IMG/VR virus record: IMGVR_UViG_3300044591_000896
Span: 51,480 to 115,479 of that record
Strand: one strand, 5' to 3'
Origin: a virus
Length of the DNA stretch: 64,000 nucleotides
Both the position numbers and the translations under genes were made by a program. A model generated the notes under the pieces. That model was not told the DNA's origin and did no database searches. It saw only the letters and a list, made by a program, of their open reading frames with translations. Shown piece by piece: positions 50,368 through 64,000 of this stretch. Each line of letters begins with the position of its first letter. Position 1 is the first letter of the stretch.

Positions 50368-52182
50368 CTATGAGTTCTGGAGAACCACCCAGTCATTATC
50401 ATAGTACTCTACAGAACTTTCGGTCATTCCGATGCCAGAATCATAGACTACTGCAGTTGCTCTGCCTATATACAATGAATAATTATATAAACATTCAGAT
50501 ACATTAAACTGCTTCTCATACAGGGTTATATTTTGATACAGAGACTTTGGGCCAGAACCATTAAACTCTATATCTCCAGATACTGGTGTTCTTAGTACGA
50601 CTAGAATATGATACATATTGCCAGGCTCAAAAACCGTTGATATATTTGAATCAAATATCTTACTTACTCCATTGACATAGAATCTCAAAATGTTACTTCC
50701 TATGCTTATTTGACCTGAGCTATTCCATGAAATTCCGTCAACAATGGATCCCGCAATTCTGGAGTTTGGGGTATAAAACATTTCTATCGTATTTATTTGG
50801 CTGGAGGTGTTGATGAAGAATCCTGAACCAGCCTCTACATTTACTCCGCTTCTTGAGTCTCTAGTCAAAATAGGATATCTTCTATTACCAATTCCAATAT
50901 TGTTATCTCCTGGATATAGGTAGTCTTGAGAATTGTTTGAATACTCTTTATTGTCGGCATACATTTTAACTATGAGATACTCTAAAGATGGTATATATCT
51001 AGATGTATCTTCAGATGTAAATACTATTTTAATGTAAAGCTTTCTTGATTCACTAAAGTCTGTTGAGGTATATTTAGGTATCACTGAGTTGTTTTCACAC
51101 GGCTCAAATGCTATTCCGTCTGTACTTGAAAATACTGTTATTCCATTGTCTCCCGCCCATTCTATTTTTGAAGAAGTTGGAGAAAGAGAGTATGGGATAT
51201 ATATCATGTCTACTATTTCAACAACAGAGTTTTCTGCAGTATCTGTTTTAGATATAGAAAGTGTTTTTTTAGATGTGTTGTGATCAAGACCATCTACTAA
51301 TATATCTGACCAATCTTTATCTACTGGGTATCTAAAAACAAAATCTGTCATATAGTTACTGTCATTGATTTCAAAAGCTTTTCCATTTAATGGACCATAG
51401 ACATCTAAAGGTCTTGTTGATACTGCATTTAAATAATGGTTTTTAATTTTAACATCTGTTAGTGCGTATCTGTATATCGCTAGGCCATTTACTAAAAAGT
51501 AGTTGCTGCTATTTTCAGTTGGCCCGCATAGCAAAGACAAATTAGAATTTGTAAATTTAAAGTTTTCAATGTCTATCGATGAAACCAATTCTCCATCTAC
51601 ATAAAGCATTGCGGAGTCTTTGTTGTACACTGCAGCTAGGTAGTAAGCCTTCTTTTTGTATGGCAAAGTATATTCAATAGTATTTGTATTTAGCTTAAAA
51701 AGAATATTGCCTTTATGATAGAACAATCCTACGCTATTTAATGAATCTCCAATTAATGGTATTGGGTCAGACTCTAAAGCATTGATTGAAGGGTATATAA
51801 AAATTTCAAAAGAAAATGTATTATCAGAGAATGTATCTTTTGCAAATCCGCCTTTAACAATTTCTCCGTTGTATCCTCTTGCATTATTTATATTAATAGA
51901 TGCAACGCTATCTATTTTTATTGCATATGGGTCACCGTATACTAAAGGTATAATATCTGACTTTACTTCTCCTGAATAGAATCCGTTATTTTGGCAACCA
52001 GAAATATCGACAACTGCATTTCCAGAGTCTAATGAGTAGTTCGCAAATGCAGCTTTAAATTCCTCATATGTATTATAATCATTCAATACATCTTGGTAAG
52101 ACGGAATGCTAAATGCTTCTGTTATTGCACCGCTATAATATACTATTGGGTTGTCTGCTAAGACAGAGTATTTATATGACAT
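50368..52182 (-). CDS. LamG/concanavalin-like domain virion protein
   Basis: VLADNPIVYY, FSFEIF, LAAVY...LYVDGEL, LAIYRYALT...IKNHY. Confidence 0.7.
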   Translation of the reverse strand: MSYKYSVLADNPIVYYSGAITEAFSIPSYQDVLNDYNTYEEFKAAFANYSLDSGNAVVDISGCQNNGFYSGEVKSDIIPLVYGDPYAIKIDSVASININNARGYNGEIVKGGFAKDTFSDNTFSFEIFIYPSINALESDPIPLIGDSLNSVGLFYHKGNILFKLNTNTIEYTLPYKKKAYYLAAVYNKDSAMLYVDGELVSSIDIENFKFTNSNLSLLCGPTENSSNYFLVNGLAIYRYALTDVKIKNHYLNAVSTRPLDVYGPLNGKAFEINDSNYMTDFVFRYPVDKDWSDILVDGLDHNTSKKTLSISKTDTAENSVVEIVDMIYIPYSLSPTSSKIEWAGDNGITVFSSTDGIAFEPCENNSVIPKYTSTDFSESRKLYIKIVFTSEDTSRYIPSLEYLIVKMYADNKEYSNNSQDYLYPGDNNIGIGNRRYPILTRDSRSGVNVEAGSGFFINTSSQINTIEMFYTPNSRIAGSIVDGISWNSSGQISIGSNILRFYVNGVSKIFDSNISTVFEPGNMYHILVVLRTPVSGDIEFNGSGPKSLYQNITLYEKQFNVSECLYNYSLYIGRATAVVYDSGIGMTESSVEYYDNDWVVLQNS

Positions 52183-52184
52183 AA

Positions 52185-53165
52185 TTACCCCTGTTCTAGT
52201 TGTGCAACTCTTGTAGATAATTCCTGTACGGCTTTAATAAGTGGAGCAATAAACTGCTCATACCTTAATGCTTGACTTTGATCTTCTTTCAGAATCCATC
52301 CGCCAAAATCTTCTGCCCCAGATCCATCTACTGCTGCTTTAACTTCTTGAGCTATCAATCCATAATGAACTCTTTCGCCAGCAACTGGTGTTTCAATCTG
52401 ATTGCCTTCTGGGTCAAATGTAGTTACGGTATCGCCAACTATGTATTTATATTTTACTGGGTTTAGAGAATTAATAAAATTTAATCCTAAATCAGAAGAC
52501 TCTATCTCTGTTTTTAAATTTAAGTCTGAGGGTGTAATTAAAGATGCAGCATATACTGAGCCTTGGAAGAATCCCCTCTTCCAATTCTTTGCAACTGGTA
52601 TTCCAGAAAATACATCAATCTCTTGACCTAAATCAAAAAAGTTATTTGATGATGGGTACCAATTTGAATTAACTCCATATGCAGAAGATGTTGCTAAGTT
52701 TAAACTTATTCTATTGTCTAGCGGATCAATGTTTGCATTTTGTCCTGGTGGGCCCTGGGGTCCAGTAGCACCAGTTGCTCCGTCTGCGCCTCTTGGAATT
52801 GTAAAATTAAGCTTTACATCAGATGATGTTCCAGAGTTTGTAACATTTGCATTTGTTCCAGCAGCACCTGTCGCTGTTGATTCTACAGCTACTGTTGCAG
52901 CTGCGTCACCTTTGTCACCTTTTGGACCTGCGGGCCCCTGCACACCCTGCTCACCCTGCGGTCCAGTTGCGCCAGTCAATCCCTGGGGACCTTGCGGTCC
53001 TTGCGCTCCTGTGGCTCCTGTGGGGCCTGCGGGCCCTACAGGGCCTGGGTGTGCGTCTAAGTACTGGTCAATGTCCAAAGCAAGCTGAGAGATATCCCTA
53101 GGTACGTCAGGGGTATCTGTGTAGTCTGGGTAACTAAAGTCTTTTGCGTTTGGTACAGTAGCCAT
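52185..53165 (-). CDS. Collagen-like fibre with S74 intramolecular chaperone
   Basis: 16 consecutive Gly-X-Y triplets plus a shorter run; SDLNLKTEI...HYGLIAQEV...LIKAVQEL. Confidence 0.88.
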
Positions 53166-53186: not shown

Positions 53187-53789
53187 TTACCAAAGCCAAA
53201 AGCCTGGGCACATATACTTTGTGCCAGATATTAACTTTTTAGATTGGTGCAGATATGGTTCTGAAGATGGGAATATAACTATACTTCCAGCTTGAGGCTT
53301 TATAGTAACGTTTTGATTTGGAAAGGCTAACTCTCCGCCTTCATAATCATCGTTTAAATATGAAACAATAGAGTATCTTAATCTTGCATCTCCGTCATTT
53401 TGATCAGCATGTGGACCCATTTCTGTTCCAACATTATACTTTTTAATAGCAGAGTCGGTATCAATTTTTACATCGCCCTCTACATTATTATATTGCTTAT
53501 ATAATGAAGCGCAGAATTTCATATTTGCAATAACGCTATTAATTATATAAAGCTCTTTTGGAGAAGGCTCTTTACCAATTTTTTCATAATTAGCATCAAT
53601 CATTTTTGCATAGCCATATACAGTATCTGAATCATTGCTTGCTGTCCATGGCTTCCATTTAGATATAAATGCAGTGTCAATTGAATCGTCATCCTCTGAC
53701 TGCTCTATAAGATCTATTAATCTGCTAGGCTCAGAAATTGAATTAGTAAAATAAAATATGTTTGGTGCTAATTGGTGAAACTCGTACAT
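53187..53789 (-). CDS. 2OG-Fe(II) oxygenase, prolyl 4-hydroxylase-like
   Basis: HAD, YLNDDYEGGE, distal H, GTKY. Confidence 0.9.
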   Translation of the reverse strand: MYEFHQLAPNIFYFTNSISEPSRLIDLIEQSEDDDSIDTAFISKWKPWTASNDSDTVYGYAKMIDANYEKIGKEPSPKELYIINSVIANMKFCASLYKQYNNVEGDVKIDTDSAIKKYNVGTEMGPHADQNDGDARLRYSIVSYLNDDYEGGELAFPNQNVTIKPQAGSIVIFPSSEPYLHQSKKLISGTKYMCPGFWLW

Positions 53790-53790
53790 T

Positions 53791-54507
53791 TCAATCTCCT
53801 ATAAACTCGGTTCCAGTAAACCAAAATGATGGACACATGTATTTGTGTCCACTTTTAACTAAATGTGCTGTGTGGCTGTAAGGTGATGAAGAAGGAAATA
53901 GTATTGCACTTCCAGCCTCTGGCTTTATAGAAACTGTTACCTTACCTACATTTTCTTTTGCAAGGAAGTCTGGGTGTGGCTTATCTTCATGTTCAACTAC
54001 TCCGTCTTTAATGGTAAATGATATTTCTCCACCCTCGTATTTATCATTTAAATATAACACTACAGAGTATCTTAGCCTTTCATCTCCTTCTTGCTGATCA
54101 AAGTGCCCACCCATAAAAGTTCCAGCATCGTACTTGTTAATTCCGACATCTGGATACATATTTAATGGATCTTCTATTTTATAAAACTCTCTGTAAGCTT
54201 CAAATGAATTTCTAAAGGCTGAGCTTATAGTACCAAATATGTAAGAGAATTTATCTAGCGTATCTTCATCTATTAACTTTGATAGCTCACCAGACTTATA
54301 GTTTTTCCAGTGGTCTGAGTTTATGTTTTTGTTTGTACCATAAACATACATCTCTCCGCTACAAGCTTCCCAAGATTTCCATTTTGGAATCAAGGTAGTC
54401 ATTTTTTCATTATCTTCTGTTTTTTCAATTGCAGAAATTAAATCTTCATGATTATCAATTAGTCCTGTTACATAAAGTATTCCATCGTGCAGTTCTACTA
54501 CATTCAT
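53791..54507 (-). CDS. 2OG-Fe(II) oxygenase, prolyl 4-hydroxylase-like
   Basis: HFD, YLNDKYEGGE, distal H, GHKY. Confidence 0.9.
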   Translation of the reverse strand: MNVVELHDGILYVTGLIDNHEDLISAIEKTEDNEKMTTLIPKWKSWEACSGEMYVYGTNKNINSDHWKNYKSGELSKLIDEDTLDKFSYIFGTISSAFRNSFEAYREFYKIEDPLNMYPDVGINKYDAGTFMGGHFDQQEGDERLRYSVVLYLNDKYEGGEISFTIKDGVVEHEDKPHPDFLAKENVGKVTVSIKPEAGSAILFPSSSPYSHTAHLVKSGHKYMCPSFWFTGTEFIGD

Positions 54508-55262
54508 GATATCTCCCCCGATAATTCTTTTGCTGGCCTGCTTGATACACCTGGGCCAGGAAGAAGTCTTTCTCCACGGTCTCTCATTTCAGCCCACTCT
54601 TCAGCATCTTTTGCTTGCTGTAGTCTTGCTTCTGCGATTTCCGTTTCCCATCTAGCTCTTGTTTCATCACTATATTCTATCTCTTCGAAATCCCAAAATG
54701 ATCCAACTGTATACCTTGTGCCCTTTTCTATTGGTAAAACTTCGTGTATATTGTGATGACCACCCTCAAATGCTGCGAGAAGTCCTTTTCTTGGCTTTAT
54801 TGTTATCTCATGATCTCTAAAGTTAAGTTCTCCACCTTCAAAGTCATCGTTAAGATAAAGGAATGATGCCATTTTACTTCTTTCAAAAGCATTATACTCT
54901 GGGCTGTCTAGTGGAGTATTATCTGAATGGAATCCAGCAAATGCACCTTCTATCCATTTTTGTGAGTGGTAGCTAACTTTTCTAAGTGGTCCACCTCTTG
55001 TATCTTCTGTGGCAGCCTTAATGCCAGCCTCTAAATCTGTAAAGAAATTTGCTGGTAATCCAAACTTAAACATATCGTCATCTTCTGGTAAGTTTGAAGA
55101 GAATGACTCGTAAAAAGAAATTGGTCCCCAAATAAGAGTACCCTTTTCTGTTGAGTGATCCCAATACTTTAATATAGCATCACAGTGTTCTGGTGATATA
55201 AAGTTTTCGTACAGTACTACATCGCTCTTTAAAACCTTCTTGCCATCAAGATTATATATCAT
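54504..55262 (-). CDS. 2OG-Fe(II) oxygenase, prolyl 4-hydroxylase-like
   Basis: HSD, YLNDDFEGGE, HEV...GTRY. Confidence 0.9.
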   Translation of the reverse strand: MIYNLDGKKVLKSDVVLYENFISPEHCDAILKYWDHSTEKGTLIWGPISFYESFSSNLPEDDDMFKFGLPANFFTDLEAGIKAATEDTRGGPLRKVSYHSQKWIEGAFAGFHSDNTPLDSPEYNAFERSKMASFLYLNDDFEGGELNFRDHEITIKPRKGLLAAFEGGHHNIHEVLPIEKGTRYTVGSFWDFEEIEYSDETRARWETEIAEARLQQAKDAEEWAEMRDRGERLLPGPGVSSRPAKELSGEIS

Positions 55263-56100
55263 TTAGTCTTCTCGCTTTCGATACGTCTTGTCGATTTATC
55301 TGTTGATAAACTCCGTTTGCCCTGTCTCTTTTCCATCTTTCTCTTTCCATCTCTGCCCAAATTTCTTCTCCATAAAGCTGCTGGTTTTTTATCCACTCTT
55401 CAGTGCCTTCATGAAATCTAAGCATATTGTTTCTGATAAAGTACTTTGGCTTACCCGTAATTTTTCTAACTCCGTGATGGTATAACTCATCACCATCTGT
55501 TAAGAAATTAGGATCTCCTGCTGGGAAAACAATTACATCTCCAGCTTTTGGCTTATAGTAAAATAGCTTATCGTTTATGTAAAAATCAACTCCGCCGCCT
55601 TCGTAGTCATCATTTAAATACATAGTTACGGTTACCGCAAAATTATATCCTCTAGCGTCTCTTTTTTCTACCTGGTAGTCTGTGTGATAGTGCATTGCAA
55701 GATCTAGTGCTACTTCTGCTTCTTCATTATATTTGCATATAGAAGGGCCCATTTTTATCCATTTGTTTTTTGTTCTACCATCAACTTCATCAACAAATGA
55801 TTCAAATGAGTATTCAACATTATTTTTCTTAAAATAGTCATCAACTACTGTAAAAAATACTCCTTCTATTTCTGCTAGAACTTCTCTTTCTTTTATAACC
55901 CTTGGAGTATCTTCTGCATCACGAATAAAGTTATCTGCCTCTAAACCAAACGTATACCAATCTTCCCAAGGGTAAATCATTGAGCCTTCAGGATTTACCT
56001 CTGACTCTATTATTGTATTTAAAAATGAGTCTAGGTCTCTGAAGGGGTTAGAATAAACAAAAACTTTTGGATAAATTTCTCTGTACTGAAGTTCACTCAC
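55252..56100 (-). CDS. 2OG-Fe(II) oxygenase, prolyl 4-hydroxylase-like
   Basis: HTD, YLNDDYEGG, HGV...KPKY. Confidence 0.9.
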   Translation of the reverse strand: MSELQYREIYPKVFVYSNPFRDLDSFLNTIIESEVNPEGSMIYPWEDWYTFGLEADNFIRDAEDTPRVIKEREVLAEIEGVFFTVVDDYFKKNNVEYSFESFVDEVDGRTKNKWIKMGPSICKYNEEAEVALDLAMHYHTDYQVEKRDARGYNFAVTVTMYLNDDYEGGGVDFYINDKLFYYKPKAGDVIVFPAGDPNFLTDGDELYHHGVRKITGKPKYFIRNNMLRFHEGTEEWIKNQQLYGEEIWAEMERERWKRDRANGVYQQINRQDVSKARRLNDI

Positions 56101-56786
56101 GGCTGCTTTTCTCCTGTATGTTTTAATATATTCCAGAAAAATGGTGATGTATATCTATTACCAGATAAGACTGGCCTTACTCCGTGAACGTAATTTCTAT
56201 CTCCTGGGAAGAAGTAAGCTGATCCAGCATTTGGTTTAAATTCAATTCCTTGTATTGGAAAGAATAGTTCTCCGCCTTCGTAATCATCATTAAAATAAAA
56301 TATTGATGCAATGTCGTAATGTGGAAAATCATTAGGCGTTCCAGCATCTGGGCCTTCGTGAAGTTCTTTATCTGCATGAGGATCTTGTCTAGTTCCAACT
56401 GGCCATCTTACGATAGCTGGGCCCGTTGCCTGTACGTCTACATCAAAAAATTTATCTACTTCTTTTTTAAGTCTAACAATTAGTCCTTCAACAACAGTTA
56501 CAATTGAAGGGTCATGAGATATATCCATGGACTTTCTGGTACATACTCTGTCTGCCCATACATTTGCATCATATATAACTGTGCCGTTTTCATTAAAATG
56601 TGACTCTGTTATATCCCATGTCTTGTTACTAAATGCAAAATCAGTTAATCTTTGCTTTTCTGCTTCTGTTAAAAAGTTTTTTAACTCAACAATATTGTCT
56701 GTTGAATCACCAAAAAAACCAGAAGGCGTAATTGATGTAAGCTCTTTGTAATTATGCTCTTTGTTTGTATTTACTTGCTTTTGCAT
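56097..56786 (-). CDS. 2OG-Fe(II) oxygenase, prolyl 4-hydroxylase-like
   Basis: HAD, YFNDDYEGGE, HGV...GNRY; AGGAGA RBS before ATG 56786. Confidence 0.9.
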   Translation of the reverse strand: MQKQVNTNKEHNYKELTSITPSGFFGDSTDNIVELKNFLTEAEKQRLTDFAFSNKTWDITESHFNENGTVIYDANVWADRVCTRKSMDISHDPSIVTVVEGLIVRLKKEVDKFFDVDVQATGPAIVRWPVGTRQDPHADKELHEGPDAGTPNDFPHYDIASIFYFNDDYEGGELFFPIQGIEFKPNAGSAYFFPGDRNYVHGVRPVLSGNRYTSPFFWNILKHTGEKQP

Positions 56787-56794
56787 TTTTTCTC

Positions 56795-57544
56795 CTATTG
56801 GTATTTTCTTTTTGACCAAAACTTCTTTTTATAGACTCCACCATCTGGTGATCTAAATGTATTAGCTGTCTCCATATGCTTTTGTAAAATCTCTTCTGCC
56901 GTCCTAAAAACCAAGTCTGATTCCCAGTCTTCTCTTTTGAAAGGAATTATTTGCATATACGGTGTGCCTGCTGGCACTACGCCTGTAAAACCTTTTTGCA
57001 AGAAAAACGGGATAAGACCTGAGTTAGTTACCTTATCACTATCTATTATACCAGCCACTGTTAAAAATGGTAAATCAAATCTATTAACTGGGGATAGGTA
57101 GATTGCGCTATATCCTTCTGGAAGGACTGGTGCCCAATTTGCATACCAATGAAAATGATCATCGTCATATCCTGCTGGTGTTACAAATCCCTCCATCTTT
57201 GCTCTTTCTCCAACAAAGTCTTCAAAACCAATATCTGTTTTAACCTTTGTTCTGCCACGCTTTTCATAAAACTCAATATCGCATGGAGTAAGTAGAGCAT
57301 ATCCTGTTGTAAATATATCAAGTATTGCTGGGCAAGACTTATAGGACATTACCTTTGATATTCCATCTGGATTTACATAAGGTACTCCATTTGGATCTTT
57401 AATATAAATACTTGCATCTTGCCACCATTTTGCAAGTGATTTGCTCATAGGAGATGGTGAATGAGTGCCATCCTTCTTATTATAAATTTTATTAGAATGA
57501 AATGTTATTTTATTTGTCACTGCAGGCCACTGGCTTTCCGTCAT
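56795..57544 (-). CDS. DUF6065-related protein
   Basis: KSCPAILD...GY...PCD; PEGYS...P.NR; GIIDSD; GTPYMQIIPF. Confidence 0.6.
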   Translation of the reverse strand: MTESQWPAVTNKITFHSNKIYNKKDGTHSPSPMSKSLAKWWQDASIYIKDPNGVPYVNPDGISKVMSYKSCPAILDIFTTGYALLTPCDIEFYEKRGRTKVKTDIGFEDFVGERAKMEGFVTPAGYDDDHFHWYANWAPVLPEGYSAIYLSPVNRFDLPFLTVAGIIDSDKVTNSGLIPFFLQKGFTGVVPAGTPYMQIIPFKREDWESDLVFRTAEEILQKHMETANTFRSPDGGVYKKKFWSKRKYQ

Positions 57545-58232
57545 TAACTTTTAATCTTAAGGCTTTTATTTCGTGATCACCTATTTTATTACCATAATGA
57601 TCTACGCCATCTCTATAGAAATTTGTCCATTTGCCAGCCTTATTTATTTCATAAACAATATCTCCATATTTATCATCTGGGAAAAACCCTGGAGGCAATT
57701 CAAACATATCACGAACTACTGCTTCTGAGTTGTTTAGTTCTTGTAATGATATTGGCATTATGGATATTACTGGTGTGCCAGCCTTAATAGTAATTACTGT
57801 ATCTGGTCTAGTAATTCTCCATGCTACTGGAAATTCACCCTTAAAAAATGAAGTTGATATGACTCCAGTAAATGGGTGTGCTCCGTCTATAAATTGATTA
57901 GGGACGGGCATTCCCATTATGCTGAGGTTCTCTTCGGTTCTAAACAGCAAACCAGTATTAAAGCTTATGGTTGCATTTCCTCTTGTGTTATGTGCGTACT
58001 TTTCTCCTGAAAGAATCTTTACATGATCTGATTCTGAATTAGAAATACCATCCCATATAAAGCTAATATCCTCTGGAAAAGATATCCCCCAACCAAGAGC
58101 ATTTGAAAGACTTACTGGAAAGCATTTATATGCATGCGCCTCATAAGTTTCGTCCATCCAGGATCTTTTTATTCCTAGCGGCTCAAGCTTTCCATAGTTT
58201 GCTCTTGTTTGGTAGACATCAAATTTGTGCAT
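57510..58232 (-). CDS. DUF6065 family protein
   Basis: RSWMD...HAYKCFPV..SN..GW...P.DI...WDG; GTPVISIMP. Confidence 0.7.
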   Translation of the reverse strand: MHKFDVYQTRANYGKLEPLGIKRSWMDETYEAHAYKCFPVSLSNALGWGISFPEDISFIWDGISNSESDHVKILSGEKYAHNTRGNATISFNTGLLFRTEENLSIMGMPVPNQFIDGAHPFTGVISTSFFKGEFPVAWRITRPDTVITIKAGTPVISIMPISLQELNNSEAVVRDMFELPPGFFPDDKYGDIVYEINKAGKWTNFYRDGVDHYGNKIGDHEIKALRLKVNDGKPVACSDK

Positions 58233-58909
58233 TAGTACTCACTATCTTTTAATGAAAGATTTGTAGCATGTTGCTTATAAAATTCTGGCGAATGTGCAGA
58301 ATCATTATAGTCAGTCATTGTTACTAAGGAATACTTTGTTCCAGTTAGAACTGGCATTGCTCTATGTGAAAATAGATACGTTGATGGGAAAATAAATAAG
58401 TCTCCAGCATTTGGTTTTACCTCAATGCCAAGTTTTCCAAAACTTAATCCGCCGCCCTCGTAATCATCATTTAAGTATCCAACCATTGAAACTGTAGCAA
58501 TATATGACCAGCCGTGGTCAGCATGCTCAGCAAAGTGTTGTCCTGGGCCATACTTGATAAAGTTCATAGCTTCCCAATACTTCATATCAATATTGTAAAA
58601 CTTTGAATAGTCATCTAATGCAACTTTTTGAGCGTCATAAAGATCTTGCCAAACACTATCAAATTCAAGCATGAACTCATCTTTGCCTGGGTAATCCATC
58701 TTTTTTAATTTAAAATCGTAACAATCACGATACTCTGGAATTTTTTCTCTATAGCCTACAGTGGCTTCTTTCCAGTTATGCAGTCCATTGCTTGCCTTTA
58801 GAGTATTTTCAACTCTTTCAATGGCATTGATTTCTGGCTTCAATACGTCACGGTATAGCCATAATCCAGGAAACAATTCTTCTTTTGAAGAGTATCCAAT
58901 ATTTGACAT
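58232..58909 (-). CDS. 2OG-Fe(II) oxygenase, prolyl 4-hydroxylase-like
   Basis: HAD, YLNDDYEGG, HRAMPV..GTKY. Confidence 0.9.
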   Translation of the reverse strand: MSNIGYSSKEELFPGLWLYRDVLKPEINAIERVENTLKASNGLHNWKEATVGYREKIPEYRDCYDFKLKKMDYPGKDEFMLEFDSVWQDLYDAQKVALDDYSKFYNIDMKYWEAMNFIKYGPGQHFAEHADHGWSYIATVSMVGYLNDDYEGGGLSFGKLGIEVKPNAGDLFIFPSTYLFSHRAMPVLTGTKYSLVTMTDYNDSAHSPEFYKQHATNLSLKDSEY

Positions 58910-58953
58910 CAATTACTTCTTTCTATTATTATCTAAATTAATAAAAAATTAAT

Positions 58954-59346
58954 TTAGCTCCAAGCACTTCCAGTTTCTGGTAGGGTTTCAGAAGTTACTG
59001 GGTAAACTGATACACCTTCAGCTGCAGCCTTTATAAATGCCTGTACTGTTCCTGTGCTTACATACATAACTCTTTTTATATAAAATATTTTATTGTCAGA
59101 GATAAAAGCAAATCTGTGCTGTCCTTCTACAATGTGTGCTGGTTCACTGTCATCATGAGTAAAAGATGTTCCATCCCATGTTGAGCCAATTCTTGCCTCT
59201 TCATTATCTGTTATATCAATAATGCCAGTTGTATTATCAAATCCCGCTTTTTTTCTAGGATATGAGGAAGCTTCTGGATCTAATGTAACTGTTCCTAGAA
59301 CAATATTATCTGAAACAAAAACGTATGAATTTTCTATAATTGCCAT
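58954..59346 (-). CDS. Hypothetical protein with internal duplication
   Basis: YVFVSDNIV...IGSTW and FAFISDNKI...TGSAW halves; AGGAGA RBS. Confidence 0.7.
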   Translation of the reverse strand: MAIIENSYVFVSDNIVLGTVTLDPEASSYPRKKAGFDNTTGIIDITDNEEARIGSTWDGTSFTHDDSEPAHIVEGQHRFAFISDNKIFYIKRVMYVSTGTVQAFIKAAAEGVSVYPVTSETLPETGSAWS

Positions 59347-59373: not shown

Positions 59374-59405
59374 TTTAAGTGGGGCTGTTGCCAGCCCCAC
59401 TTAAA
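59374..59405 (-). terminator. Perfect 14-bp hairpin after the PPxF-repeat gene
   Basis: TTTAAGTGGGGCTG-GCAA-CAGCCCCACTTAAA (GNRA loop); weak U tract. Confidence 0.7.
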
Positions 59406-59411
59406 CTTAAT

Positions 59412-60314
59412 TTAGTATCTGAATCCGAACCGTGGTGGTGCGAAGTACGGTGGGAAGTATGGTGGTGAGAACCCGAAGAACGGATATCCTCCAAAGTACG
59501 GTGGGAAGTATGGTGGTGAGAACCCGAAGTACGGTGGGAAGAATGGTGGGAAGTGTGGTGGGAAGAATGGTGGGAAGTGTGGTGGGAAGAATGGTGGGAA
59601 GAATGGTGGGAAGTACGGTGGGAAGAATGGTGGGAAGTGTGGTGGGAAGAATGGTGGGAAGAATGGTGGGAAGTGTGGTGGGAAGAATGGTGGGAAGAAT
59701 GGTGGGAAGTGAGGTGGCGTAAAGGTTGTAACCTGATTAGTACCTACTCCTGCTGATGTTCCGTTTGCATTTAATGCATAAACTGTATAACTTTGTGTCG
59801 TATTACCTGTCTCTGATATATCTTTAGGAGATACAGAGTTTACGTAAGATGGACCATCTGAAGAAACTATAGTATAGCTTGATACTGCTTTTCCTCCATC
59901 TGCTAATGGGGCATCCCATGTAACTCGGTCAGTGTTATTAGCAGGTGTTGTAGCAACTGCATTTCTTGGTGCTGAAGGAACTGTTGTTGCCGTAACGGTT
60001 GTTGTTGTAGGCAAAGAGCTTCCTGCTGCGTTGCTTGCAATAACTGTAAATACATAAGAGGTGTTAGAAGCTAATCCTGTAAATGTATGTGAAGTTGTTG
60101 CTGAAGTTTGGGTTGTTGTGACTGGTGTAGTCGTTATAGTATATAGAGTTGCTGGTGGAGATGCGGCTGGCAGTGACCATGTAAGGTTTACTGCTCCGTC
60201 GTTGTATGGACGGTTTGTGCCCACATCAGATCCAGTAAGGCTAGTTACTGCATTTGGCTCTAGGAAGTTATCTTGCGCTGAAGACTTAATTCCTTTTCTT
60301 TTACTTGTTGCCAT
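59412..60314 (-). CDS. FN3-domain protein with C-terminal PP-x-F repeats
   Basis: Two FN3 domains ([19 protein letters not shown]; VPSAP...WDAP..DGG...[10 protein letters not shown]), then about 100 aa of PP(F/H/Y/R)F. Confidence 0.85.
59526..59717 (-). repeat. 16 tandem 12-bp units encoding [12 protein letters not shown]
   Basis: Directly visible; five further PPxF units lie in 59427-59516. Confidence 0.97.
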
Positions 60315-60332: not shown

Positions 60333-62528
60333 TTACGCAGTCAAATCGCCCATGAGAACCCAAGTATTAGCTGCTCTCTTGAATAATGTTGCTGATGACC
60401 AACGTGCTCTTAATGTTAAGCCTGGTGTTGCATTTACTGTTGTTCCAGAAGTTGCAATTGTTACAGCTCCTGTGTTTGTTCTTAATATATCAATAGATGT
60501 TCCTACTGGGTATGTTATGCCGTTTGTGCCATCTGCAGTAACTGTAATTGTGACTGCTGATCCACCTGTGTGGTTTACTTCTAGCATTTGATCTCTGTAG
60601 TTTGCATCTGTTATATTAAATGCTGCTGTCTTTTCAACAATTGATGTTAGTGAAGGAACTCCTTGCTTTGTCTGTGTTCCATCTGTAAAGACTACTCCAG
60701 CTGCTGTTAAGTTGTTTACAGCAAGGTCATCAAGTGATCCTTGTGTGAAATCAACTGTTGTTGATGGCTCTGTGGTTACACCCTTGAATAATTTCCAAGA
60801 ATCTGCAGATACATCTCTTACTATACCTGAGTGCTTTGCTGCTCCGTCATTATAGCCAACTACAAGACCTAGGTCTACTGTGTTTCCAGCATTTTGGTGA
60901 GCAAGCTGTACTAGGTTATCTTCAATTGTAATAGATGTTGCTGATGCGTTAAATGTTGTACCATTTACAGTAAGGTTACCCTGAACTGTTAGTGCTCCGT
61001 CTAATGTTGTAGACTGTGCATCTGTTGTTACAAGCTTTGATGTATCAGCAATTCCGTGAACTGATGTTGTAGCGTTATTATGTGATGACACTGCAGATGA
61101 TGCTGTTCCAGCTGCATCGTAATTTGACGCTAATCCATCTGCATAGTTTTCTGATGCTACTGCTGCAGCATCAATTGCTTCTGATTTAGCTGTAGCTACC
61201 TGCGCCGTTGTTGCAAGAAGTGATGTATCTGCAATTCCATGTACAGATGTTGTATCTAATGTGTGTGTTGAAACTGCTGCGTCTGCGTATGCCTTTGTTG
61301 CAAGATCTGCAGTGTTTGCAATTCCGTGAACATTTGTCTCATCTGCTGCGTGGGCTGTTAAATCCCCTGCATCTGCTTTTAGATCTAATGCTGTTTGTGT
61401 AGCGGTTGAAATTGGCTTTGCTGCGTCTGATGTGTCATCTACGTTAGAAAGACCAACCATTCCCTTAGTTATTCCGCCAACTGTACCAGTAAATACTGGT
61501 GAGGCTAGTGGTGCTTTTGCATCTAACTGAGCTTGTACGTTAGATGTAACACTGTTTAGGTATCCAATTTCAGTATTTGATACATCGCCAATTGATGTTG
61601 TTGCTGGCAATGTTATTGAACCTGTGAAGATTGCGCCTTCTGTAGGAGCTTTGCTATCTAGCTGAACCTGTATGGCAGATGTTACTCCATTTACATATCC
61701 AATTTCAGTATTTGAAACATCTCCAATAGATGTTGTTGCTGGAAGTGTTACTGATCCTGTAAATATAGGTCCTGATAGAGGAGCTTTAGCATCTAACTGT
61801 ACTTGTATGTTTGATGTTACTCCATTTACATATCCAATTTCAGCTTCTGAAACGTTTCCAATTGTTGTTGTTGAAGGAAGAACAACTCCTCCAGTAAATG
61901 TTGGTGAATTTAGTGGAGCTTTAGTATCTATTGCTGTTAGTGCTCCTTCTACAACAGAGGCATCAGCCTTTGCTGTTAATGCTGTTGCAACTGTAGATGC
62001 AAAGTTAGCGTCGTCGCCAAGAGCATCTGAAAGTTCACTCAAAGTATTCAAAACTGCTGGTGCTGCACCAACAAGTTGAGCAAATGCTTGATCTGTGTAT
62101 GACTCTGCATACATCTTTGTTGCCATGATTGATGTGTCTGCTGTTAATGTAATTGTATTAGCTACATCGTCATATACTTTTGAAACACCTGTTCCAGCTG
62201 TTATTGCTGTATTTACAGCATCTTGTGAAAGTTCTGTTATATCTAATTGAGCTGCTGGTACTTTACCTGAGCTATTAAGTGAAGCTACACCATTAGGCTG
62301 TCCAAGTAGGTTATCTTCAAGATAAGCACCTACTCTATTCTCTAAATCAGATAATGGTTCATTTGCGTAAGGAAGTGCATTCCATGCTGTGCTTCCAGTT
62401 CCAAACTTAAAATAATTTGTGTCGGACTCAAGTCCAACTTCTCCTGCTGCTAGAATTGGGTTAACTAGAGCCCATTGAGCTTCTGTTCCTCTTCTTACTT
62501 GAATTCTTACTGTTGACATATTTGCCAC
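60333..62528 (-). CDS. Fibre protein with Mtd-N-like N-terminus
   Basis: IQVRRGT..QW...NPILAAGE.G.E.DT..FKFG.G...WN.LPY; APAVLNTLSELSDALGDD; three HGIA(D/N)T repeats; C-terminal WVLMGDL domain. Confidence 0.8.
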   Translation of the reverse strand: MANMSTVRIQVRRGTEAQWALVNPILAAGEVGLESDTNYFKFGTGSTAWNALPYANEPLSDLENRVGAYLEDNLLGQPNGVASLNSSGKVPAAQLDITELSQDAVNTAITAGTGVSKVYDDVANTITLTADTSIMATKMYAESYTDQAFAQLVGAAPAVLNTLSELSDALGDDANFASTVATALTAKADASVVEGALTAIDTKAPLNSPTFTGGVVLPSTTTIGNVSEAEIGYVNGVTSNIQVQLDAKAPLSGPIFTGSVTLPATTSIGDVSNTEIGYVNGVTSAIQVQLDSKAPTEGAIFTGSITLPATTSIGDVSNTEIGYLNSVTSNVQAQLDAKAPLASPVFTGTVGGITKGMVGLSNVDDTSDAAKPISTATQTALDLKADAGDLTAHAADETNVHGIANTADLATKAYADAAVSTHTLDTTSVHGIADTSLLATTAQVATAKSEAIDAAAVASENYADGLASNYDAAGTASSAVSSHNNATTSVHGIADTSKLVTTDAQSTTLDGALTVQGNLTVNGTTFNASATSITIEDNLVQLAHQNAGNTVDLGLVVGYNDGAAKHSGIVRDVSADSWKLFKGVTTEPSTTVDFTQGSLDDLAVNNLTAAGVVFTDGTQTKQGVPSLTSIVEKTAAFNITDANYRDQMLEVNHTGGSAVTITVTADGTNGITYPVGTSIDILRTNTGAVTIATSGTTVNATPGLTLRARWSSATLFKRAANTWVLMGDLTA
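61490..61925 (-). repeat. Degenerate 135-bp (45-aa) repeats, about 3.3 copies
   Basis: KAP...P.FTG.V.LP.TT.IG.VS..EIGY.N.VTS..Q.QLD repeated. Confidence 0.9.
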
Positions 62529-63040: not shown

Positions 63041-64000
63041 TTATGCCTTAAAAACTGTACCAGCTACAGTAATTGTTGAATCGTTTACTGGATTTACTCT
63101 GATTCGGCAATGAGTTGCATCTACATCTGCTGTAATTGTTCCTCTTGAACCATTTGTTCCAACGATTGCGTATTCTGTAATTGCTACGTTGCCAGATGAA
63201 TCTAATGTTACTAGAATTTCTGAGATTTCATTGTGTGTTCCGTTGTCAATTTTAACCAAGAACTTACCTGATTTAAATGTTGACTTATTGAACTGGTATG
63301 CTGTTACTACAACTGAACCTAGAGAAGTTACTCTAGCTGCTACCTGCTTTGCAACATCATTAATATTGAGATCTGTAAATGGTGTTGTTCCATCTAGAAC
63401 ATCGTCTAGTGCTGCCTGGGCAGTGGCTTCTGCTGCTGCTTGAGCGGCGTTAGCCTTTGAAGTAGAGTCTGCTGATGCAGTGGCTTCTGCTGCTGCTTGA
63501 GCGGCGTTAGCCTTTGAAGTAGCGTCTGCTGCTGCAGTGGCTTCTGCTGCTGCTTGAGCGGCGTTAGCCTTTGAAGTAGCGTCTGCTGCTGCAGTGGCTT
63601 CTGCTGCTGCTTGAGCGGCGTTAGCCTTTGAAGTAGCGTCTGCTGCTGCAGTTGAAACCGCTGTTGCGATGTCTGTTGTAACATCAGATGAGTTAGCTTT
63701 TGTTGCTAATGCTGATGTGAGGGTTGTTGCGTAATTAGCGTCATCGTTAATTGCTGCTGCTAATTCATTTAATGTATTAAGAAGTGATGGTGCACCATCT
63801 ACTAATGAATCTACTGCAGTTGAAATTGCTGTATTACGATTTGAAACTTCTGTTGATATTGCAGATGAAAGAGCTGCTGCTGCAGTGGCTTCTGCTGCTG
63901 CTTGAGCGGCGTTAGCCTTTGAAGTAGCGTCTGCTGCTGCAGTGGCTTCTGCTGCTGCTTGAGCGGCGTTAGCCTTTGAAGTAGCGTCTGCTGCTGCAGT
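63041..64000 (-). CDS. Long fibre protein, C-terminal part (start outside window)
   Basis: Frame appears open from the window edge to 63041; LVDGAPSLLNTLNELAAAINDD fibre motif; Ala-rich repeats; beta-rich C-terminal domain. Confidence 0.85.
   Translation of the reverse strand, partial: TAAADATSKANAAQAAAEATAAADATSKANAAQAAAEATAAAALSSAISTEVSNRNTAISTAVDSLVDGAPSLLNTLNELAAAINDDANYATTLTSALATKANSSDVTTDIATAVSTAAADATSKANAAQAAAEATAAADATSKANAAQAAAEATAAADATSKANAAQAAAEATASADSTSKANAAQAAAEATAQAALDDVLDGTTPFTDLNINDVAKQVAARVTSLGSVVVTAYQFNKSTFKSGKFLVKIDNGTHNEISEILVTLDSSGNVAITEYAIVGTNGSRGTITADVDATHCRIRVNPVNDSTITVAGTVFKA
63425..64000 (-). repeat. 57-bp near-identical repeats (TAAADATSKANAAQAAAEA), 4 + 2 copies
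   Basis: Units at 63425-63652 (four) and 63887-64000 (two); only the unit at 63425 differs, by 2 nt. Confidence 0.97.

Follow-up and report, generated by a model that had tools for sequence, protein, structure and literature searches.

A portable proline/aromatic tract is a candidate stalk module of fiber-region proteins in uncultured lake phages

The DNA analyzed here is a 64,000-nucleotide stretch (the window) of the IMG/VR virus record IMGVR_UViG_3300044591_000896, positions 51,480 to 115,479 of that record. Its subject is a minus-strand gene at 59412 to 60314 of the window that encodes a 300-residue protein ending in a long tail of proline and aromatic residues. The first-pass annotation of the sequence treated this tail as a one-gene feature. 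It is instead a portable, in-frame, slippage-prone linker module of a large protein family, and we document its anatomy, its family, its variation in length and its genomic context. In the window protein the tail is probably the stalk module, with a minimal aromatic tip, of a modular fiber-region virion protein of an uncultured 115-kb lake siphovirus. The gene and the parts of its product are as follows.

59412 to 60314, minus strand: the whole repeat gene, 300 amino acids comprising a predicted anchor peptide, two FN3 domains, a Pro/aromatic putative stalk and an aromatic tip (open reading frame list, 479 homologs and the Pfam fn3 match)
60255 to 60314, minus strand: N-terminal peptide, residues 1 to 20, beginning M-A, the most conserved stretch in the family alignment
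59727 to 60254, minus strand: FN3 tandem pair, residues 21 to 196 (AlphaFold2 (AF2) and Foldseek)
59526 to 59717, minus strand: 16 tandem PPxF units, residues 200 to 263, in near-identical 12-nt units (Tandem Repeats Finder and codon reading)
59415 to 59525, minus strand: aromatic tip, residues 264 to 300, with an internally duplicated 11-residue segment and the end PPRFGFRY

Codon-by-codon reading of the tail reproduces the earlier description in full. The residue at x in the 16 PPxF units runs H, F, F, H, F, F, H, F, Y, F, F, H, F, H, F, Y, and the units are followed by the duplicated 11-residue segment and the PPRFGFRY end. The predicted length of about 100 residues comes to 101, with the composition P 43, F 35, Y 8, H 5, G 5, S 2, R 2 and A 1, so that Pro, Phe, Tyr and His make up 91 of the 101 residues. 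The background in the proteins of the window is 4.2% Pro and 4.3% Phe, and no second Pro/aromatic tract lies within the 64 kb. The tail has no acidic residues, and its only two arginines are at the extreme end. Tandem Repeats Finder describes the DNA as an array of period 12 with 14.8 copies, 87% matches and a score of 284. The 12-bp units are near-identical, as had been noted, with just three distinct 12-mers encoding 15 of the 16 PPxF units.

The body of the protein matches PF00041 in two stretches (E = 5.5e-13, 49.4 bits against a cut-off of 25). AF2 models the FN3 pair (residues 21 to 195) with a predicted local distance difference test score (pLDDT) above 90, and Foldseek aligns it with the FN3 tandems of titin and LAR at E values of 1e-11 to 1e-12. 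The conserved 20-residue N-terminus would be the docking end on the virion. The tail was also inspected for known repeat signatures. It contains no G-X-Y collagen pattern (five Gly in 101 residues, none periodic, and no Pfam Collagen match) and no Ser-Pro4 extensin motifs. A regular His stripe, expected as a 12-residue super-repeat equal to four turns of a polyproline II (PPII) helix, was sought, and the spacing of the His and Tyr units was found to be irregular at 2 to 3 units.

A word-indexed search identified at least 479 homologous proteins, and an IMG/VR scan with the N-terminal 20-residue peptide pattern matched 334 viral loci, of which 80 were fetched for analysis. Every complete member has the same layout: a conserved N-terminus of about 20 residues, two FN3 domains, a Pro/aromatic tract and a variable tip. 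Across 172 distinct members the tract is 22 to 166 residues long (median about 80) with a mean composition of 39% Pro and 46% aromatics plus His, and 52 of them have His in the tract. A pattern search of viral sequences, the check that the first-pass annotation had proposed, thus finds Pro/aromatic tracts to be widespread and built from units of other lengths besides PPxF. The unit types are PPxF (4 residues), VPPYF (5), (A/S)PP(G/S)FF (6, used by 26 loci) and PFFPPFF (7). Because the unit length varies from 4 to 7 residues, it is the composition that is conserved and not the periodicity. The retention of composition without periodicity favors an extended, non-globular rod and disfavors a solenoid of set register or a series of defined peptide cores.

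The tips of the 172 members fall into three classes: 87 Hint/intein-like, 36 Cys-rich and 49 short. The Hint-like tips are about 155 to 178 residues long and start 0 to 11 residues past the tract. Of 24 distinct tips, 23 begin with Cys, and a His-Asn end is present in about half. Their score against PF14890 (Intein_splicing) is 24.5 bits, under the cut-off of 35.8, and the sequence matches in the PDB are weak (gp41-1 intein, E = 0.003; BIL domain 2lwy, E = 0.18). These tips stand at the extreme C-terminus in L003:920-1429 and in 23 other loci. The window protein lacks a Hint domain; judging from the conserved residues of the relatives, self-cleavage by Hint would yield a product with its end at about the same point as that of the window protein. 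The Cys-rich tips are knots of 12 to 40 residues. The short tips include a recurrent R-x-Y-COOH end (GFRY, SRLY, PRAY, IRAY, LRFY), and the window protein is of this type. A gene for a radical-SAM enzyme with a SPASM domain lies between a Cys-rich-tipped member and the oxygenase array (described below) at L019:3005-4003, and small DUF6171-like Cys proteins are repeatedly encoded next to Cys-rich tips (L011:11426-11665 and others). These neighbors hint at a peptide-type maturation of the tip.

A full HMMER scan with the tail alone as the query located the tract in other architectures. It is present in fiber-like proteins of 1054 to 1479 residues, just ahead of an FN3-like domain of about 100 to 120 residues at the terminus, in proteins with Listeria-Bacteroides/InlB-type repeats, in a PASTA-domain protein with a Cys-rich tip, in a 725-residue protein with a Hint tip and in a 794-residue protein ending in GFRY. 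A degenerate DNA pattern detected more than 117 tract stretches in IMG/VR, many of which encode small proteins in which the tract comes after a body of about 85 residues. The same pattern gave a single stretch in 32 million cellular-genome contigs. This lone cellular match (L293, DUCD01000215.1) belongs to a Verrucomicrobiales metagenome-assembled genome, has a coverage of 0.075, and carries a fiber gene, a small-body tract protein, oxygenases and DUF6065. The contig is phage-like and was probably mis-binned into the assembled genome, and the Ns inside its tract indicate an assembly gap at the repeat. The tract is therefore essentially confined to phages. A search of the Atlas recovered viral FN3 relatives only, and neither the locus nor the protein had a match among 50,697 cultured-phage records by megablast or tblastn.

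The genome of the window encodes a second tract protein outside the window (G000:C1:1361-3736; L095/L096). It has 792 residues, a fiber-like N-terminus and two tract segments, and it ends in PPRFGFRY, the tip type of the repeat gene. The stop of its gene overlaps the start of a gene for a 77-residue DUF6171-like protein with a CxxC...CxxCGC pattern. Another genome (L084/L085, on the contigs of L023/L022) encodes a PASTA-body and an FN3-body tract protein with the same Cys-rich tip type. The matching of tips within genomes suggests that they share a target or a tip-specific partner.

Tract length varies among close relatives. Proteins with identical tips have tracts of 88 versus 116, 108/124/136, 124 versus 152, 38 versus 86, and 68 versus 82 residues, and a relative with a body 95% identical to that of the window protein has 14 PPx(F/Y/W) units against 21 in the window protein. 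Since every unit measures a multiple of three bases, replication slippage alters the length of the tract and keeps the reading frame. The proposal that length can change by slippage is borne out at the level of the family by these same-tip proteins and by the 14 versus 21 units. The near-identical DNA units point to a recent expansion and the length is highly variable, features that would also be seen if the tract were a functionless, slippage-expanded C-terminus of low complexity that the phage tolerates. We regard this as improbable. The tract is found in all 172 distinct members down to about 40% body identity, is still 22 residues long in the shortest, and persists across different codons, different unit types and at least five unrelated body architectures.

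The reality of the repeat and its frame were also considered. All six frames are open across the repeat, and openness across a simple repeat is no proof of translation. The frame is fixed by the two FN3 domains upstream, which are in continuous frame with the tail, and by the folded modules (Hint, FN3 and Cys-rich) that lie downstream of the tract in the same frame in relatives. Translation is supported by the hundreds of homologs that keep the tract as protein with other codons and unit lengths. The open frames, and short-read contigs that break within the tract, are what would be seen if the repeat were an assembly artefact or if another frame were translated. The flanking junctions speak against an artefact. 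Contigs from four independent lake metagenomes match both flanks of the tract, to 59472 and from 59682, at 100% identity, and the identical 300-residue protein is recorded from two contigs. An artefact is very unlikely, and together with the wrong-frame alternative it receives almost no weight; the remaining uncertainty concerns the exact unit count. In one lake run, contig ends at 59575 to 59633 leave the tract into other flanks, one of which encodes a Gly/Cys-rich tip, and relatives with different tips appear to coexist in the same lake sample.

As an alternative, the first-pass annotation suggested that the tail is a multi-core peptide precursor, by analogy with antamanide and cyclolinopeptide A. 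Such a precursor would give rise to small, possibly cyclic PPFF-type peptides by proteolysis, and short, near-identical units in tandem would fit it. The radical-SAM/SPASM gene and the DUF6171-like Cys proteins beside some Cys-rich-tipped relatives could be taken in the same sense. The architecture of the family speaks against this idea. About half of the members have a Hint domain of 155 to 178 residues after the tract, which is thus internal, and in the large proteins it is followed by an FN3-like domain. The 4- to 7-residue units share no set length, and no recognition or cleavage motifs are found between them. The precursor would have to include two FN3 domains and be encoded in a fiber operon, and no protease, cyclase or exporter gene was seen in the neighborhood within the window. 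A multi-core precursor is accordingly highly improbable.

The stalk interpretation accounts for the tract as follows. The N-terminal 20 residues would dock the protein on the virion, and the tract, with about 40% Pro and 46% aromatics and without a fixed fold, would form an extended, fairly stiff, PPII-like rod. The rod would hold the tip off the particle and expose a greasy aromatic surface, and slippage in the near-identical units would retune its length in frame. In the window phage the tip would have shrunk to the 37-residue aromatic end of the R-x-Y-COOH type. The position of the gene, the types of domain and the diversity of the tips point to a virion protein that acts as a spacer or in adhesion at host contact. 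The PPII helix rises 3.1 Å per residue, and by calculation 101 residues in this conformation span up to about 31 nm, with a range of about 7 to 51 nm for the family. Long Pro-Pro runs need elongation factor P for translation. AF2, run with a 25-sequence alignment, assigned no secondary structure to residues 200 to 300 (pLDDT 47 to 67), an outcome usual for an extended or disordered Pro-rich segment and compatible with PPII. Of the PPII-like filament envisaged in the first-pass annotation, the extended and slippage-variable character fits the data, and PPII itself is compatible with the model.

Several points weigh against the stalk interpretation. AF2 models the tail with low confidence. So hydrophobic a rod could aggregate or depend on partners. 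The evidence from genomic context comes nearly all from one syntenic phage clade. No short-read Logan contig spans the interior of the tract; all break inside it, so the exact count of 16 units rests on the original assembly. No RNA runs containing the locus were found.

The neighborhood of the repeat gene introduces a further possibility for the tract. The features on either side are listed below.

60333 to 62528, minus strand: tail-fiber-like gene, 731 amino acids with an Mtd_N domain, whose stop is 18 nt before the repeat-gene ATG
59374 to 59405: 14-bp perfect hairpin right after the repeat-gene stop, overlapped by a minus-strand promoter-like CTGGCA-18-TATAAT
58954 to 59346, minus strand: g130, 130 amino acids with a duplicated β-β-α-β module (AF2 pLDDT 92)
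53187 to 58912, minus strand: array of 2OG-FeII_Oxy_3 genes at 58232 to 58912, 56097 to 56819, 55252 to 56100, 54504 to 55262, 53791 to 54507 and 53187 to 53789 (Pfam and PHROGs)
57510 to 58232 and 56795 to 57544, minus strand: two DUF6065 genes amid the array
52185 to 53165, minus strand: collagen-like G-X-Y fiber whose C-terminal part is a Peptidase_S74 chaperone domain; its gene follows directly on the oxygenase array

All six oxygenase genes match PF13640, which is of the prolyl 4-hydroxylase (P4H) type within the 2-oxoglutarate (2OG) oxygenases. The first begins about 500 nt downstream of the repeat gene, and the six span 0.5 to 6 kb downstream. Their sequence matches in the PDB are weak (E about 1e-3) and include the Bacillus anthracis P4H and the lysyl hydroxylase LH3. 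Among cultured phages, the first oxygenase comes closest to oxygenases of cyanophages, with 27 to 40% identity, and DUF6065 had no relatives among the 50,697 cultured-phage records.

The association of the tract with this array was counted in both directions. For loci chosen by the repeat protein, only those with at least 3 kb of downstream sequence were counted (n = 70). An oxygenase gene starts within 3 kb in 67 of these, DUF6065 is present in all 70, and most carry 5 to 7 oxygenase-like genes. In loci chosen by DUF6065, a Pro/Phe-tract protein lies directly upstream of the first oxygenase in 46 of the 46 that were eligible. The adjacency is kept where a PASTA-like body of about 85 residues takes the place of the FN3 body, and also on a distant contig whose DUF6065 is 29% and whose oxyA is 41% identical. 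A weak test of co-occurrence on 10 fragments searched whole gave arrays of at least five oxygenases in four of six tract-bearing contigs, and the four tract-less contigs have 0 or 1. One 83-kb contig (L113, G005) carries an unusually large array of 14 PF13640 matches at about 51 to 64 kb and also encodes a DUF6065 protein and a tract protein.

These observations fit an extension that is compatible with the stalk interpretation, namely that the tract is the dedicated substrate of the six downstream P4H-like oxygenases, which the two DUF6065 proteins may assist. With hydroxyl groups on Pro, and possibly also on Phe, His or Tyr, the rod would become soluble, hold the PPII form more stably or be primed for glycosylation or cross-linking. 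We put this forward tentatively. In its favor are the six PF13640 genes with P4H and LH3 as their nearest, if weakly matched, solved relatives, the adjacency counts and their survival through a body swap and distant divergence, and the restriction of arrays of at least five oxygenases to tract-bearing contigs among the 10 fragments. A precedent also exists, in that the P4H of the chlorovirus PBCV-1 hydroxylates the (Pro-Ala-Pro-Lys)n repeat of that virus in vitro (PMC3634087). In both cases one virus encodes P4H-type 2OG oxygenases and long tandem Pro-rich repeat proteins. The present system differs in that it belongs to a bacteriophage, has an aromatic and uncharged Pro-Pro-x-Phe repeat, includes six paralogs and DUF6065 in place of one enzyme, and is known from sequence alone.

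Other observations count against hydroxylation of the tract. Most loci come from one syntenic clade, so the genes may be adjacent because their order was inherited. Between the repeat gene and the oxygenase unit lie a hairpin and a promoter-like site; because a scan for promoters and terminators gave counts not above those in shuffled sequence, the separation of the repeat gene from the next transcription unit is suggestive only. The large tract-bearing proteins are encoded at least 9 kb from the array, and a bona fide G-X-Y fiber, the classical P4H substrate, lies at the other end of it. Synechococcus phage Syn9 has 10 tandem dioxygenases with tryptophan halogenases and a JmjC-type enzyme, for which Iyer et al. 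proposed roles in secondary metabolites (2010, PMC2938197). Syn9 resembles the present phage in having an array of divergent classical 2OG-Fe(II) dioxygenases in its genome; here the array is flanked by the Pro/Phe-tract protein and, in most loci, by the collagen-like fiber, both in the structural module. The earlier suggestion that the tail may need hydroxylation thus gains contextual support from six P4H-type genes that start about 500 nt downstream, an adjacency conserved in all related loci examined, and hydroxylation is plausible.

The same array can be read with the tract as an unmodified linker and the oxygenases directed at the collagen-like fiber, a different protein of the virion, a target in the host or some small molecule. 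The probability of this reading is substantial, although somewhat below even. The collagen-like gene with its S74 domain has homologs behind the array in many loci, lake-phage contigs are generally rich in PF13640 genes (up to 14 per contig), and the secondary-metabolite roles proposed for the cyanophage arrays are of this kind (PMC2938197). Against it, some loci (L002, L010 and L291 among them) keep the full array with no collagen-like homolog behind it at E-value limits of 1e-5 or 1e-6, and the Pro/Phe tract is present in all loci. Six to seven paralogs also seem excessive for one short G-X-Y segment. The most elaborate outcome, in which the battery of six oxygenases and two DUF6065 proteins converts an insoluble rod into a hydroxylated and possibly glycosylated or cross-linked phage fiber akin to extensin or mussel glue, is rather unlikely.

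Several known systems share parts of this design. Extensins and other hydroxyproline-rich glycoproteins, and the (Glu-Pro)n(Lys-Pro)n segment of TonB, are Pro-rich PPII rods or spacers, and extensin rods are hydroxylated and cross-linked through Tyr, which makes them a second precedent for hydroxylation of a tract of this kind. The tail differs from these in having neither Ser-Pro4 nor charged Pro dipeptides, in placing aromatics at nearly every non-Pro position and in its phage context. Ig-like and FN3 domains occur on decoration and fiber proteins of tailed phages, such as T4 Hoc, and are presumed to adhere weakly to surfaces. The window protein likewise carries FN3 domains on an accessory structural protein of the fiber region, and no Pro/aromatic stalk or swappable Hint or Cys-rich tips were found among the Ig-like/FN3 phage proteins described in the literature searched. 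The resemblance to Peptidase_S74 fibers and to Hedgehog/intein-like Hint domains lies in the half or so of the family that ends in a Hint-like domain with Cys first. The window protein differs in having no Hint, and in the relatives conserved residues alone suggest cleavage.

Pro-rich rods, FN3 decorations, Hint tips and viral P4H enzymes are each already known. In the literature on Pro-rich phage linkers, DUF6065 and phage P4H substrates, no description of the tract, of this combination of modules or of Pro-Pro-x-Phe chemistry was found. P4H-type 2OG oxygenase genes are common in tailed phages of lakes and oceans, and their substrates have been an open question since the genes were catalogued in 2010 (PMC2938197). 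The tract family provides a concrete, abundant and easily synthesized candidate substrate beside such an array. If the stalk were hydroxylated, it would be, as far as we know, the first heavily hydroxylated structural protein described in phage, and it would explain the purpose of many phage 2OG-oxygenase arrays that have no explanation at present. If the tract were an ordinary unmodified linker, the description of the family would be of moderate interest. The tract is a natural, probably rod-like module of two or three residue types with a genetically tunable length, and as such is a possible building block for protein design. The variety of heads (FN3, PASTA-like, InlB-repeat and large fibers) and of tips (Hint, Cys knots and FN3) makes the family a compact example of modular fiber evolution.

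The window is part of a complete virus record of 115,479 bp with direct terminal repeats and a guanine plus cytosine content of 38%, and its DNA is present in lake-water metagenomes from many studies. The genome encodes an HK97-type capsid, a portal, a prohead protease and a DnaE-type polymerase. In the searches of cultured-phage records, relatives were found for the portal and an oxygenase only, and the portal shares about 55% identity with portals of Streptomyces phages of 127 to 134 kb. The repeat gene sits in the structural module with the portal, protease, capsid and tape measure genes, and in 54 of 78 related loci it has a homolog of the 731-residue fiber-like gene upstream, ending less than 200 nt away. 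The predicted fold of g130 had no match in the PDB, and BFVD returned uncharacterized phage proteins only. Homologs of g130 lie downstream of many non-Hint members and of no Hint-tipped member examined. At 63041 to 64000 on the minus strand, a fiber-like protein that runs off the end of the window contains several near-identical Ala-rich repeats of the AADATSKANAAQAAAEAT type.

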